12,694 nt of DNA from a virus (taxonomy: Duplodnaviria; Heunggongvirae; Uroviricota; Caudoviricetes). Below the pieces are notes generated by a model. It searched no databases, was not told where the DNA came from, and saw only the letters and a program-made list of their open reading frames with translations. Both the position numbers and the translations under genes were made by a program. How positions within the stretch are numbered: position 1 is the first letter of the stretch; each line of letters opens with the position of its first letter. Shown here one piece after another: positions 1,132 to 12,694 of this stretch. The stretch covers positions 1 through 12,694 of IMG/VR virus record IMGVR_UViG_2529293249_000016. One strand, 5' to 3'.

Positions 1132-2193
1132 TTAATATTCAAAATTATTTTCTTCAATAGAGAACTCAATCCCTCGGGATAACTTATCAATATTCACATC
1201 AAATGCGATATCTGTTAATTCACCATCCTCGATTTCATACATAACTTCAATTTCAATATCGAAACTAATCTCTTGAACTTCAGTTCGTGTGGTTGTCTCC
1301 ATTGGAATCATTACTTTATCTTCGCTATCCCAATACCCATTATTAAAGTCTGGACCAGAAACAGTAACTTCAAAATCTACAGAAACAGAGAAGGTCGCTA
1401 GACAATAATTATTGTCAATCTTAATTATTGATGGTTCAAAGTCATCAATATTGACGACTTCAAATGAATCCAATTCAGCGTCTTCCCAAGTTGAAACGTT
1501 ATATCCATCGGCATCATTGAGTTGGGCAATTACGTCCGCTCTTATGTCTTCACGTTTGCTTTCGATAAACTGCATCAATTTATTACTTAATTCGTTTGTA
1601 TGCGTATTGTATTCACCTAGAAACTTATCAAGTGAATCAATTTGATGAAGATTGTTTTTACCATCACAATAATTTTTTAAGTCACTATCCTCAGAAATGA
1701 TATACACATCTTCATCATTAACAAATCGCTCTACCGCAGCTAAATTGATTGCATCAGGAAACTCACTTTTTTTCTTATTTTGCCCAAATGGTGGTTCTTT
1801 GCCAAAGTATTTATCTAAAACCTCATTAAGATCTATCACTTCTATTGTAGCTAATTTGGCGTGACATCCTTTCAAAAAATCATCAAAAACTTTTTGTGCT
1901 GCTTCGTGAATTTCATGTTCGTTAAATTGCTGAAAAAAACCATGGAGCGGTCCATTATCAATACTATTCAAAAGCCTAGCTTTTCTTTGTACTGTGTTTA
2001 TAGCCTGCAGAGCATCCTTTATTGATTCCTCTATTTTACCTTTTACTTCTCTCTCTACAACTGTAGTTGTAATTAAGACTAAATCACCTTTCGCACATAA
2101 TTCATGGAAAGCTTTAAATGCTACCCCCTCAAAATGAAGACCAGCCTTTACGTACGTTTGTGTGTCAATAAATACCTTATTTGTTTTAAGCAT
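1132..2193 (-). CDS. AT-rich cargo protein of 353 aa with an N-terminal PIN-like domain (VFIDTQ start) and a very acidic C-terminal half; candidate anti-phage or toxin nuclease
   Basis: ATG at 2193 with AGGA about 7 nt upstream. N-terminus MLKTNKVFIDTQTYVKAGLHFEGVAFKAFHELCAKGDLVLITTTVVEREV resembles PIN-like nuclease folds (DUF4935-type); the C-terminus is D/E-rich. Strongly AT-rich and convergent with the portal gene, lying between portal and cos. Confidence 0.7.
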   Translation of the reverse strand: MLKTNKVFIDTQTYVKAGLHFEGVAFKAFHELCAKGDLVLITTTVVEREVKGKIEESIKDALQAINTVQRKARLLNSIDNGPLHGFFQQFNEHEIHEAAQKVFDDFLKGCHAKLATIEVIDLNEVLDKYFGKEPPFGQNKKKSEFPDAINLAAVERFVNDEDVYIISEDSDLKNYCDGKNNLHQIDSLDKFLGEYNTHTNELSNKLMQFIESKREDIRADVIAQLNDADGYNVSTWEDAELDSFEVVNIDDFEPSIIKIDNNYCLATFSVSVDFEVTVSGPDFNNGYWDSEDKVMIPMETTTRTEVQEISFDIEIEVMYEIEDGELTDIAFDVNIDKLSRGIEFSIEENNFEY

Positions 2194-2680: not shown

Positions 2681-3106
2681 ATGAAAAGCTTTTACGTATT
2701 AATTTTAATTCTGGTTGCAAGCTTTGTTAGCGTCCCAGTTCAGGCGGTAACAGCTAAAAACTATGAGAAAGGAACTAAAGCTCAACAGAAATCAATATCT
2801 TACCTTTCATGTGCATTCTATGGCAGTAGCACACAATTAGATCCTAGCTACACGGAGCAAGTACCTACAGCCGATATCAAGATATTACAGAAAGCAGCTT
2901 ACCACGCTTACAACGATGCGCTCTCATACTTTGGCTATGAGGAACCAGATCACGAACAACGCATAATTGATTATGCTGAATTTGTGGCGTCGCAAGAAGC
3001 TGTGTTATGGGATAAGCCGGGAATGAATGGAAAGCAGGTAACACTAATTGCTCGTTCTCTCTACAATGAGAGTAACTGTAACTTGTTACTGGACTCAATT
3101 AAGTAG
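2681..3106 (+). CDS. Small secreted or periplasmic protein (141 aa) with an N-terminal signal peptide; AT-rich moron of unknown function
   Basis: ATG at 2681 with GAGG 5-8 nt upstream. N-terminus MKSFYVLILILVASFVSVPVQA-VTAK has a hydrophobic core and an AXA-like cleavage site. AT-rich and located between cos and the tum-like operon. Confidence 0.65.
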   Translation: MKSFYVLILILVASFVSVPVQAVTAKNYEKGTKAQQKSISYLSCAFYGSSTQLDPSYTEQVPTADIKILQKAAYHAYNDALSYFGYEEPDHEQRIIDYAEFVASQEAVLWDKPGMNGKQVTLIARSLYNESNCNLLLDSIK

Positions 3107-9236: not shown

Positions 9237-9265
9237 AAAACTGATACTAGGATCGCAAAAGAGAT

Positions 9266-9862
9266 ATGTCAACATCAAAGTACCCAAGTGAGATCAAAAT
9301 AAATCCCAATAAAGGTGGTAAGGCTGCGATTGAGCGATTAGTCGAAGCCTATGGCTTTACGACACGACAGGCTTTAGCTGATCACTTGGAAGTATCAAAA
9401 AGCACACTAGCGAACAGGTATTTGCGGGATACATTTCCTGCTGACTGGATAATCCAATGTGCTCTTGAAACAGGAACCTCCCTCAAATGGTTAACTACCG
9501 GACAAGGCCTTAAGCAAAGCTCGCTGACAGCAGCTACAGAAGAGCTTGTTAAGTTTCGCCTTGCCGCAGGCAAAATGATTGAAGACGGTTCATATGTCTT
9601 CGATTCATCATTTCTTCCTGCAAACCTTTCATCACCAATTGTTGTTCAGGATGGACTCGTCACATACATTTGTGATCAAAAATTTTCTGAAGTACTTGAT
9701 GGAAACTGGTTAATCAATATCGACGGAACCTATTCCATTCGAAAAATCACAAGGCTTCCTAAAGGAATGATTAAAATTACAACAGCAGAGAATAGCTTTG
9801 AATGTGCATTTTCTGATATTGAAGTGGTTGCTTGTATAAGAAGTACAATAGTCTCGAATTAA
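9266..9862 (+). CDS. cI: Immunity repressor, 186 CI type (198 aa)
   Basis: ATG at 9266. N-terminal HTH region (RLVEAYGFTTRQALADHLEVSKSTLANRY...WLTTGQG) and a size close to the 192 aa of 186 CI. Divergent from the apl/cII operon and upstream of int. Confidence 0.75.
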   Translation: MSTSKYPSEIKINPNKGGKAAIERLVEAYGFTTRQALADHLEVSKSTLANRYLRDTFPADWIIQCALETGTSLKWLTTGQGLKQSSLTAATEELVKFRLAAGKMIEDGSYVFDSSFLPANLSSPIVVQDGLVTYICDQKFSEVLDGNWLINIDGTYSIRKITRLPKGMIKITTAENSFECAFSDIEVVACIRSTIVSN

Positions 9863-9882
9863 TATAGTAAAAGGATTTTAAA

Positions 9883-11559
9883 ATGAATTCATTTGCCATC
9901 GTTATACTCTTATTAGCATTTCTCGCCCCTGTTCTAGCTGTAATATTATTTAAACAAAGTAAAAAACACAAAGCGGCTATAGATAACCTGACAGCTAACA
10001 ACATAGCCCTTTCTAACCAACTGATTGAAAATCAAGAAAAACTAGCACAGACCGCACGAGAATTATCAGAGCTTGAAGGGCGAGCAGCACCATTGTGGCA
10101 ATACGAAGAATTGCACAGCGCAGTAATGGATGCAGAGAATAAGATAAAAAATGCGGACTCAATAGCCAAGCAAAAAATAGATGAAGCCCAAATTAAGGCG
10201 GCTAAAACAGTAAACGAAGCAAATTATCAAGCTCAGATGACAATAAGCAACGCTAATAGCGAAGCTATAGCAATCACCAAAGACGCTCGCGATGCACGCC
10301 TGAAAGCCAAAGAACGTCTTGATAATGCTAATAATAAAGCAAATGAGCTAATCTCAAATGCTAATGACAATGCAGTAAAAATTATTTCTGATGCAGAAGA
10401 AAGAGCAAAGGAGATTGCTGGTTCAGCATATGAAGCTAAAGAGTTTGCAGAAAAATATGAAGCAGTTGCAAAATCAATGAAAAATAAAATTGAAGGTTAT
10501 GGTGATGAATGGATCATCCCTAACCGTAGTGTACTTGATGAGCTGGCAGAAAATTATGAATTTACAGATGCAGGCAAGGAATTACAAAAAGCCAGAGAGT
10601 TAACCAAATCATTAATAAAAACTAATAAAGCTGCTTCGTGTGATTATGTTGAGCAAAACAGGCGTAATACTGCCATAAACTTTGTTTTGGATGCCTTCAA
10701 TGGAAGAGTTGACAGTATTTTATCAAAAGTCAAACACAACAATTTTGGAAAACTTTCCCAAGAAATAAAAGATGCATTTCAACTAGTAAATTACAATGGC
10801 TCTGCCTTTAGGTCCGCAAAAATAAGTGACATCTATCTTCAGGCAAGACTCAACGAGCTAAAATGGGGTGTAGCAGTTAATGAAATTATGCTCGAAGAAA
10901 AAGAAGAGCAAAGAAGGATTAAAGAACAGCTTCGTGAAGAGGAAAGAGCTCGTAGAGAATATGAAAAAGCGATAAAAGAAGCTGAAAAAGAAGAAAAAGC
11001 TATTCAGCAAGCTATAAATAAAGCAACGAAAGAACTTATGCTTGCAAATGAAGAACAACGCTTAGCTTTAGAGCAAAAAATAGCTGAACTACAGTTAAAA
11101 TATGAAGAAGCTGAAGCTAAAAATCAACGAGCTATTTCTATGGCTCAACAAACCAGATCAGGCCACGTCTATATCATTAGTAATATTGGTTCATTTGGCG
11201 AAGATGTATATAAAATTGGAATGACACGCCGCCTTGAACCACTTGATCGTGTTCGTGAACTCGGAGATGCTAGTGTTCCTTTTTCGTTCGATGTTCATGC
11301 GATGATTTATAGTGATGATGCACCATCATTAGAAAACCATCTGCATAAAGTTTTCAACGAAAAGCAGGTCAATAAAATTAACTCACGAAAAGAGTTTTTT
11401 AACGTAAATTTAAAAGAAATCAAATCAGTTATTGAAGACATGAACATCAACGCCCACTGGACAATGTTTGCAGAGGCGAAAGAATATAGAGAGTCTCTAT
11501 CTATTGAGCAGGAGCGCAAAGCAGCCACTTCCGCCAACGATGAACTACATGTTGCTTAG
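9883..11559 (+). CDS. AT-rich cargo protein of 558 aa: N-terminal transmembrane anchor, long K/E/A-rich coiled coil, C-terminal T5orf172 (GIY-YIG-like) domain; candidate anti-phage defence protein
   Basis: ATG at 9883 with AAGGA 7 nt upstream, 20 nt after the cI stop. Hydrophobic N-terminus FAIVILLLAFLAPVLAVILF. C-terminus GHVYIISN...YKIGMTRR...PFSF...RKEFFNV matches the T5orf172/Mug113 pattern. Inserted between cI and int, which are normally adjacent. Confidence 0.75.
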   Translation: MNSFAIVILLLAFLAPVLAVILFKQSKKHKAAIDNLTANNIALSNQLIENQEKLAQTARELSELEGRAAPLWQYEELHSAVMDAENKIKNADSIAKQKIDEAQIKAAKTVNEANYQAQMTISNANSEAIAITKDARDARLKAKERLDNANNKANELISNANDNAVKIISDAEERAKEIAGSAYEAKEFAEKYEAVAKSMKNKIEGYGDEWIIPNRSVLDELAENYEFTDAGKELQKARELTKSLIKTNKAASCDYVEQNRRNTAINFVLDAFNGRVDSILSKVKHNNFGKLSQEIKDAFQLVNYNGSAFRSAKISDIYLQARLNELKWGVAVNEIMLEEKEEQRRIKEQLREEERARREYEKAIKEAEKEEKAIQQAINKATKELMLANEEQRLALEQKIAELQLKYEEAEAKNQRAISMAQQTRSGHVYIISNIGSFGEDVYKIGMTRRLEPLDRVRELGDASVPFSFDVHAMIYSDDAPSLENHLHKVFNEKQVNKINSRKEFFNVNLKEIKSVIEDMNINAHWTMFAEAKEYRESLSIEQERKAATSANDELHVA

Positions 11560-11617
11560 CAATGTATGTTTCATAGTAATCACACATTGATTACTGGTTA
11601 CATATACAGTTAAATTT

Positions 11618-11641
11618 AGCCCTCTGATATGAGGGCTTTTT
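11618..11641 (+). terminator. Rho-independent terminator directly abutting the int start codon
   Basis: AGCCCTC-tgatat-GAGGGCT stem-loop followed by TTTTT, then the int ATG at 11642. Confidence 0.6.
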
Positions 11642-12694
11642 ATGGCAGTACGAAAACTAACCACAGGGAAATGGCTTTGCGAATGTTACCCCGCCGGACG
11701 AAGTGGGCGTCGTGTGCGTAAACAATTCGCTACCAAAGGCGAAGCACTGGCTTTTGAGCGCCACACGATGGAAGAAACCGAAGCAAAGCCCTGGCTGGGT
11801 GAATCAGTGGATCGTCGAACACTGAAAGACGTGGTTGAGCTATGGTTCAAACTACATGGTAAATCTCTGACAGCTGGGCAGCATGTCTATGACAAATTGC
11901 TGTTGATGGTTGACGCTCTGGGCAATCCTCTTGCAACCGATCTCACCTCTAAAATGTTTGCCCACTATCGAGATAAACGCCTGACAGGCGAGATCTACTT
12001 CAGCGAGAAATGGAAGAAAGGAGCAAGCCCGGTCACCATTAACCTGGAGCAAAGCTATCTAAGTAGTGTTTTTAGCGAACTATCCCGTCTGGGCGAATGG
12101 TCGTATCCGAACCCACTGGAGAACATGCGAAAATTCACCATCGCAGAAAAAGAGATGGCATGGCTTACCCATGAGCAGATTGTTGAATTGCTGGCTGATT
12201 GCAAACGTCAGGACCCAATTCTGGCACTGGTAGTTAAGATATGCTTAAGCACAGGCGCACGCTGGCGTGAAGCCGTAAATCTTACCCGCTCACAGGTGAC
12301 CAAATACCGAATTACCTTTGTCAGAACGAAGGGGAAGAAAAACAGAAGCATCCCTATCAGTAAAGAGCTTTACGAAGAGATCATGGCGCTTGATGGGTTC
12401 AATTTCTTCACAGACTGCTATTTTCAATTTTTATCCGTGATGGAAAAAACGTCTATCGTGCTCCCTCGCGGTCAACTCACACACGTTCTGCGCCATACGT
12501 TTGCGGCGCACTTCATGATGTCGGGTGGAAACATTCTGGCCTTACAAAAAATTCTCGGACACCACGATATAAAAATGACTATGCGTTACGCACATCTGGC
12601 ACCGGATCATCTAGAAACGGCGCTCCGTTTCAATCCTCTGGCAACGCTGCCAAGTGGCGACAAAGTGGCGGCAGCGGTTGGCATTACCCCGTAA
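11642..12694 (+). CDS. int: Tyrosine integrase, P2/186 Int family (350 aa)
   Basis: Catalytic-domain signature (ARWREA..., HVLRHTFAAHF, LGHHDIKMTMRYAHL carrying the R, H-x-x-R and Y residues). Position next to cI at the prophage end. TAA stop at the window end. Confidence 0.9.
   Translation: MAVRKLTTGKWLCECYPAGRSGRRVRKQFATKGEALAFERHTMEETEAKPWLGESVDRRTLKDVVELWFKLHGKSLTAGQHVYDKLLLMVDALGNPLATDLTSKMFAHYRDKRLTGEIYFSEKWKKGASPVTINLEQSYLSSVFSELSRLGEWSYPNPLENMRKFTIAEKEMAWLTHEQIVELLADCKRQDPILALVVKICLSTGARWREAVNLTRSQVTKYRITFVRTKGKKNRSIPISKELYEEIMALDGFNFFTDCYFQFLSVMEKTSIVLPRGQLTHVLRHTFAAHFMMSGGNILALQKILGHHDIKMTMRYAHLAPDHLETALRFNPLATLPSGDKVAAAVGITP

Follow-up and report, generated by a model that had tools for sequence, protein, structure and literature searches.

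The stretch of DNA analysed here (the window, 12,694 nucleotides of the IMG/VR record IMGVR_UViG_2529293249_000016) contains an open reading frame of 558 amino acids at 9883..11559 on the plus strand, located between a cI repressor gene and an int gene in the ORF list. The gene and the elements surrounding it are, from left to right:

9266..9862, plus strand: 186-type cI repressor gene, directly upstream of the cargo gene and on the same strand (Pfam Phage_CI_repr 8e-32, Phage_CI_C 3.5e-27)
9519..11579, plus strand: block with a GC content of 0.37 replacing the cI C-terminal domain and a 63-aa ORF of the commonest relatives (blastn against L002, L005 and L006)
9871..9875, plus strand: Shine-Dalgarno-like AAGGA, 7 nt ahead of the ATG, read from the sequence
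9883..11559, plus strand: SNIPE/PD-lambda-1 family gene, 558 aa plus stop (PADLOC, PHROG, identity to the SNIPE reference)
9892..9951, plus strand: transmembrane helix predicted at the N-terminus (aa 4-23), with the basic residues KQSKKHK after it (Kyte-Doolittle 19-mer maximum 3.16)
9952..10491, plus strand: variable N-terminal helical stalk (aa 24-203), rich in A, K, E and N (AF2 helices 2-71 and 78-203)
10492..10887, plus strand: DUF4041 or "SNIPE" domain region (aa 204-335), compact and helical (Pfam PF13250 at aa 267-322; PADLOC alignment; AF2 pLDDT 85-96 over aa 217-306)
10888..11157, plus strand: long charged linker helix (aa 336-425; AF2 helices 316-387 and 390-422), aligning with the "downstream alpha-helix" of SNIPE
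11158..11457, plus strand: GIY-YIG (T5orf172/MUG113) nuclease domain (aa 426-525; Pfam and Foldseek), with the E484 codon at 11332-11334
11618..11641, plus strand: GC-rich hairpin with a T-run, terminator-like and abutting the int start codon (terminator scan)
11642..12694, plus strand: P2/186-type tyrosine integrase gene (Pfam Int_N 3e-32, Phage_integrase 7e-22)

The cI stop codon (TAA, 9860-9862) is followed after 20 nt by the ATG of the cargo gene at 9883, and the ribosome binding site of the cargo gene, AAAAGGATTT, is kept at the Klebsiella, Citrobacter and Salmonella loci. The GC content of the gene is 0.37, lower than that of int (0.49) or of the window as a whole (0.45). A first-pass annotation, made from the letters of the window, had described an AT-rich gene situated between cI and int on the same strand, 20 nt after cI and with its own ribosome binding site, and the coordinates, the AAGGA and the base composition all agree with that description. 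It had also pointed to the adjacency of cI and int in phage 186; the two genes do abut in 186, and likewise in the Eganvirus BIS20. The cargo is a stand-alone gene with cI and int as its sole neighbours, here as at the orthologous loci of three other genera.

The record of phage 186 describes cI and int as a single lysogenic operon under the control of pL/pE, and a scan of the interval between cI and the cargo gene revealed no promoter-like site. Given the 20-nt gap, the ribosome binding site, the lack of an intervening promoter-like site and the operon annotation in 186, expression in the lysogen is plausible, and the simplest reading is that the cargo gene would be co-transcribed with cI, as the first-pass annotation had considered probable. 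Downstream of the gene, the RNA fold of the region 11560-11660 has a z of -5.2, and in L014, L018 and L022 the stem of the hairpin is invariant and its loop variable. The hairpin belongs to the conserved int leader and lies outside the cargo. It might terminate or attenuate the transcript past the cargo gene.

Among 5,426 complete E. coli genomes, 164 have the gene, without exception on the chromosome. Two Peduoviridae records, vB_EcoM-813R9 and Klebsiella phage KP12, contain it as well, under the incorrect label "chromosome segregation ATPase", and orthologues with 82-85% identity occur in Citrobacter, Salmonella, Klebsiella, Enterobacter, Raoultella and other genera. Contigs of Klebsiella, Citrobacter and Salmonella reproduce the layout to the exact nucleotide: a cI of 198 aa is separated by 20 nt from the 558-aa gene, which in turn lies 82 nt ahead of int. 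Between genera the identities are 81-85% for cI, 84-85% for the cargo and 90-93% for int. Since the layout is identical and the three genes have diverged to a similar extent, we take the cI-cargo-int arrangement to be old in the prophage lineage and not the result of a recent insertion. The conservation of this layout across four genera is a modest new detail.

Other prophages fill the same interval differently. A related int was found in 1,135 E. coli genomes, with the window-type cI plus cargo present in only 163. At this same chromosomal site, beside rcdA, related prophages have another cI allele followed by either a 63-aa ORF (649 genomes) or a KAP-family NTPase (12 genomes), the latter matching the PADLOC candidate system PDC-S20 (4e-82). 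In Klebsiella phage 4LV2017, with an int of 99% identity, the slot holds a 349-aa protein of unknown family; neither this protein nor the 63-aa ORF gave a match in Pfam or PADLOC. The slot is empty in phages 186, BIS20 and ESSI2_ev040. The idea that the interval is a variable cargo slot, for which a comparison of cI-int intervals had been proposed, is thus borne out, the contents being nothing, the 63-aa ORF, the KAP NTPase, the 349-aa protein or the SNIPE-family gene.

The picture of a gene inserted between cI and int holds for its position but not for a clean insertion, because the non-homologous block opens inside cI, at 9519. By blastn, homology to the commonest relatives reaches as far as 9518, past the HTH domain of cI but short of its C-terminal domain, and picks up again at 11580. 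Relative to these prophages the N-terminal domain of cI is conserved and the C-terminal domain has diverged, and relative to the KAP-bearing prophage the entire cI differs. The exchange takes in either the C-terminal domain of cI or all of cI, so the cargo is tied to the immunity type. That the swapped block begins inside cI is again a modest new detail.

Turning to the protein, the Kyte-Doolittle 19-mer profile has no second strongly hydrophobic segment anywhere along its length, the N-terminal segment is helical in the AF2 model (pLDDT 82-88), and 94 of 105 diverse relatives have such a hydrophobic N-terminal segment. By the positive-inside rule the protein is predicted to be anchored at its N-terminus with its bulk in the cytoplasm. 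The AF2 model as a whole (mean pLDDT 86.0) has the order transmembrane helix, long helix, DUF4041, long helix and alpha/beta domain, which is the layout published for SNIPE (PMC13190303), and the domain architecture is as first described. The best compact Foldseek matches were to the Slx1 GIY-YIG nuclease, with weak E-values of 0.09-0.17 and probabilities of 0.87-0.97. The residues Y430, G446, R449, R450, E484 and N497 are invariant across the 105 diverse relatives, and conservation among relatives falls in the order nuclease, linker, DUF4041 and N-terminus. The stalk is the fastest-evolving part (73-77% identity between genera), and with 203 residues before the DUF4041 region it is longer than the median of 164 in relatives. 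Its only matches are below threshold (Pfam DivIVA 0.006, ATP-synt_B 0.02), and the best PDB profile match of the N-terminal region, ATP synthase subunit b, is likewise below significance (E 1.5).

Profile searches place the protein in a family. The PADLOC PD-Lambda-1 models PDLC03976 and PDLC03977 match at 2.8e-120 (400 bits) and 2e-116, respectively, and the alignment to PDLC03976 is continuous from aa 114 to 550, against model positions 35-481 of 491; the SNIPE reference protein itself scores 658 bits with the PADLOC PD-Lambda-1 model. PHROG 1847 matches at 1e-132. In the HMM search suggested by the first-pass annotation, DUF4041 (PF13250) was found at aa 267-322 (3e-12, 46.6 bits against a cut-off of 27), T5orf172 at aa 427-520 (3e-17) and MUG113 at aa 443-520 (4e-20), all above their Pfam gathering scores, and the motifs that had been quoted lie at 427-434 (GHVYIISN), 443-450 (YKIGMTRR), 466-469 (PFSF) and 503-508 (KEFFNV). 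The same annotation had been unable to place the architecture in a named defence family; this did not survive the PADLOC run, which assigns the protein to PD-Lambda-1, that is, SNIPE. The current Pfam label for PF13250 is "SNIPE", and the RefSeq product name of identical copies is "DUF4041 domain-containing protein", or "SNIPE associated domain-containing protein" in newer records. It is close to certain, then, that the window protein belongs to SNIPE (formerly PD-lambda-1), a family of anti-phage systems that each consist of a single protein. The family is already known: it is named, its mechanism has been characterised, standard defence-annotation tools recognise it and it appears in RefSeq product names. 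The gene is a prophage-borne copy of this known family, and the finding is real but not new.

PD-lambda-1 originates in the functional selection by Vassallo et al. 2022 (PMC9519451) and was renamed SNIPE when its mechanism was solved by the Laub laboratory (Saxton et al., Nature 2026, PMC13190303). As the SNIPE reference sequence we used the 500-aa CDS annotated "PD-lambda-1" in the lambdoid phage PhiR26_1. Because this protein has all nine SNIPE mutagenesis residues at the stated positions (E223, N250, L253, W257, E264, K305, I308, T319 and E414), it is either SNIPE or almost identical to it. Against the CHARACTERISED protein, the PhiR26_1 copy, the window protein aligns over 278 aa with 51% identity (E 2e-76). 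The alignment spans window residues 265-541 against SNIPE 196-472 with an almost identical nuclease core, and window E484 aligns with the catalytic E414, the residue whose change to alanine abolishes SNIPE defence (PMC13190303). The DUF4041 domain (267-322) aligns with SNIPE 197-252, the site where Vassallo et al. had located DUF4041 by HHpred (PMC9519451). At the tape-measure interface of SNIPE the positions differ, with W257 replaced by K327, E223 by S292 and N250 by Q320. The natural lysine K327 stands at the position where a W257R change boosted SNIPE against Bas14 (PMC13190303).

SNIPE is an inner-membrane nuclease with an N-out/C-in anchor that cuts phage DNA during injection and not after it, and it associates with the ManYZ permease, the entry route of lambda (PMC13190303). 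Its defence is direct and non-abortive, as infected cells grow on at high multiplicity of infection, unlike those with the abortive-infection control PD-lambda-3 (PMC13190303). By homology, the window gene most likely encodes a SNIPE-like membrane-held nuclease, carried as lysogenic-operon cargo of a 186-like (Peduoviridae) prophage and providing direct defence. [quoted passage not shown] Both the defence activity and this mechanism are extrapolated from a relative that shares 51% identity with the functional half of the protein. Since the defence role rests on family membership it goes beyond guesswork. Homology does not, however, guarantee the phenotype, since two S. thermophilus PD-Lambda-1 homologues with 98.5% identity differ completely in activity, one being strong and the other having none. 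The BASEL myoviruses and podoviruses were unaffected by SNIPE (PMC13190303), and a 186-like myovirus carrying a SNIPE-family gene would therefore plausibly exclude siphoviruses and not its own kin.

The first-pass annotation had proposed a role in either abortive infection or superinfection exclusion. The second option, an exclusion-like role at entry, comes close to the SNIPE mechanism. An abortive-infection toxin, in which infection frees or activates the nuclease against the host chromosome so that the infected cell dies, is very unlikely: SNIPE deprived of its transmembrane helix is indeed toxic and cuts the chromosome, giving double-strand breaks in host DNA, so the nuclease is able to kill, but full-length SNIPE cleaves the injected phage DNA and lets the cells grow at high multiplicity (PMC13190303), and the window protein retains both the transmembrane anchor and the entire architecture. 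Somewhat less improbable, though still unlikely, is that the gene is an intact family member whose defence is not measurable, or has a very narrow range, for host-relevant phages, making it effectively neutral hitch-hiking cargo. The span from strong to no activity among the near-identical S. thermophilus homologues speaks for this reading, as does one E. coli copy (H1) that is broken by an IS4-like element. Against it, prophages of Escherichia, Klebsiella, Citrobacter and Salmonella keep the gene at full length, at 82-85% identity, in one and the same arrangement and without change in the catalytic residues, a pattern that we take as evidence for purifying selection on function.

Barely credible, finally, is the absence of any defence role, with the gene encoding a selfish endonuclease of the GIY-YIG homing type, or else a structural protein of the "chromosome segregation ATPase" or V-ATPase type. 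T5orf172/GIY-YIG domains do occur in homing endonucleases too. A membrane anchor is, however, unfitting for a homing enzyme, and the gene sits at a constant position in an operon and not within a target gene. The structural reading draws on the labels, "chromosome segregation ATPase" in the phage records and "vacuolar-type H+-ATPase subunit H" at JGI, but the NCBIfam SMC, DivIVA and V-ATPase E matches reach 16-23 bits against cut-offs of 260-729, and the strong matches are those to the PD-Lambda-1 defence family in PADLOC. The SMC model TIGR02169, tried as a candidate in its own right, gave 15.7 bits against a cut-off of 729, and Pfam returned no ATPase family. As the SMC, DivIVA and V-ATPase E scores fall so far below their cut-offs, the SMC/ATPase label reflects coiled-coil composition only.

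Within the SNIPE-like reading, which we prefer, a more specific version can be put forward tentatively, and we would hesitate to bet on it: that the 186-type protein is a functionally distinct SNIPE subtype with another partner, other targets and other phages, and that cI and the nuclease form one co-inherited module. As the N-terminal ~260 aa of the window protein have no detectable similarity to SNIPE in pairwise alignment, association with ManYZ cannot be assumed. If the subtype is distinct, the longer stalk, of ATP-synthase-b/DivIVA-like type, would attach to a partner in the inner membrane that is not ManYZ, the changed surface of DUF4041 would be directed at other tape measure proteins, and the set of phages blocked would differ accordingly. 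The co-inherited module is suggested by the inclusion of the cI C-terminal domain in the exchange block and by the layout fixed across four genera, and the repressor and the entry nuclease would then make up an "immunity plus exclusion" unit with its expression set by pL.

In practical terms, the labels "chromosome segregation ATPase" and "V-ATPase subunit H" should be corrected to a SNIPE/PD-lambda-1 family defence nuclease. Among complete E. coli genomes, about 3% have a SNIPE-type nuclease gene in the immunity operon of a 186-like prophage, as do many genomes of Klebsiella, Citrobacter and Salmonella. This prevalence is relevant to the prediction of phage host range and to the choice of siphoviruses for therapy. 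The protein is a natural variant whose N-terminal adaptor and DUF4041 surface both differ from those of SNIPE, and it would lend itself well to testing the published proposal that phage specificity is determined by these two regions. The residual interest lies in the divergent adaptor regions and in the linkage of cargo to immunity type, and no new question is opened.

Variable cargo between cI and int is not new, as hotspots of this kind are described in passages of two published studies: a defence hotspot between cI and int of the P2-related K139-like phages of Vibrionaceae (Rousset 2022, PMC9122126), and the stretch from integrase to primase, in which 8% of P2 defence systems are located (NAR 2026 survey, PMC13586616). 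As those passages describe them, the P2-related hotspots resemble the slot in the window in having variable cargo between a conserved repressor and integrase on the lysogenic strand, cargo that in the published hotspots is often related to defence. The window slot differs in belonging to enterobacterial 186-like prophages integrated beside rcdA, and in an exchange block that takes in the cI C-terminal domain or the whole of cI, a feature that does not appear in the passages of PMC9122126 and PMC13586616.

At the level of concept, Zorya and Kiwa are also comparable, as both are defences localised to the inner membrane that act on entering DNA, but they are unrelated multi-protein systems sensing membrane perturbation, and the window protein has no sequence match to either. 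The literature searched held no experiments on the window protein or on its 558-aa orthologue group, and the accession of the protein does not occur in the text part of the supplement of Saxton et al. with its list of 474 homologues. Supplementary Table 3 of PMC13190303 does include SNIPE homologues in which a transmembrane helix is combined with an "ATP synthase subunit b"-like or DivIVA-like N-terminus, and this class is the second most frequent among the TM-bearing homologues there (66 + 4 hits). The N-terminus of the window protein weakly resembles that class, all its matches being below significance.

The closest known system is SNIPE itself. Both are single-gene systems with an N-terminal transmembrane helix, a helical stalk, DUF4041, a linker helix, a GIY-YIG domain and a short C-terminal helix, and in both the transmembrane helix is followed by a basic stretch, KQSKKHK in the window protein and MTQTPLLLAIIFLLVVLVLYIAAIKRIKK in SNIPE. 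The gradient of conservation reported above for the relatives of the window protein is the same as that published for the SNIPE homologues, among which the N-terminal and tape-measure-contacting regions diversify (PMC13190303). Both are also prophage-borne, the SNIPE reference copy by a lambdoid phage and the window gene by a 186-like prophage. The window protein differs from SNIPE in its length of 558 aa compared with 500, in its longer stalk and in the dissimilar N-terminal region described above, and its carrier differs in being a 186-like myovirus prophage with the gene placed in the cI-int operon slot.

Relative to the commonest related prophages, the recombination breakpoint in the window lies at 9518/9519, inside the cI repressor gene at approximately codon 84, where it separates the HTH domain from the C-terminal domain. 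The C-terminal domain, which has a GC content of 0.38, has therefore been exchanged along with the cargo between cI and int. At the other end of cI a good promoter spans the start of the gene and is directed away from it:

9244-9272, minus strand, sigma-70-like promoter, TTGACA-17-TAGTAT

This is the position where the lytic promoter pR of a 186-type switch would be expected. On the far side of the cargo, a GC-rich hairpin adjoins the int start codon (ATG at 11642):

11618-11641, hairpin AGCCCTC-6 nt-GAGGGCT followed by a T-run

The hairpin falls within the block common to prophages without the cargo, and among Klebsiella, Citrobacter and Salmonella loci its stem is invariant while the loop varies. 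It could serve in termination or attenuation of the lysogenic transcript ahead of int, or in control of int translation.

The cI-int slot has other occupants in related elements, two of which are:

L003:3050-4501, 483-aa KAP-family P-loop NTPase in E. coli W, KO11FL and a DH5alpha record
L011:811-2804, repressor-int region of Klebsiella phage 4LV2017

The KAP NTPase version of the slot is found in 12 complete E. coli genomes. In PADLOC the protein hits the candidate system PDC-S20 at 4e-82 and, less strongly, PifA. In phage 4LV2017, where int is 99% identical to that of the window, the repressor has 313 aa and contains two HTH stretches of the Phage_CI_repr type. Next comes a protein of 349 aa that matches nothing in Pfam or PADLOC, and approximately 770 nt of apparently non-coding DNA separate it from int.

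Another AT-rich island of cargo in the window, with a GC content of 0.33, occupies the classical P2 hotspot with the portal gene (gpQ) on one side and the replication genes (gpA) on the other:

1132-2193, minus strand, 353-aa PIN_12-domain protein
2681-3106, plus strand, 141-aa protein (phrog_7437), N-terminus signal-like

A PADLOC search with the PIN_12-domain protein gave no match. In strain EC11, whose cI-int region is identical to that of the window, a TIGR02391 protein replaces this cargo. Among complete E. coli genomes, LR-25 alone was found to have the full combination.

The copy of the 558-aa cargo gene in E. coli DETEC-S560 (NZ_CP116094.1 1542550-1545564, H1) is split by the IS4-like element ISVsa5. 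Public records (ON470620.1, OM835953.1, KP836356.2 and JGI names) give members of this family names such as "vacuolar-type H+-ATPase subunit H" and "chromosome segregation ATPase". Because no ATPase model matched, these names are misannotations stemming from the coiled-coil composition. Homologues in phages of very distant hosts, Synechococcus phage Ssp-JY37 (L010:3408-5075) and Marinitoga viruses MCV2 and MPV1, are 52-55% identical. The similarity spans 73-89% of the length and takes in much of the N-terminal stalk, and over the full length E. coli SNIPE is more distant from the window protein than they are.

Relatives carry further variable cargo between int and the chromosomal junction:

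L004:5799-6551, DUF2971 protein
L005:5746-6974, Panacea-domain protein and partner
L014:6910-7770, pentapeptide-repeat protein
L012:4743-6798, "abortive infection family protein" and serine acetyltransferase

Their location agrees with a minor hotspot between int and att that the 2026 NAR survey of defence systems in P2-related prophages (PMC13586616) reports.
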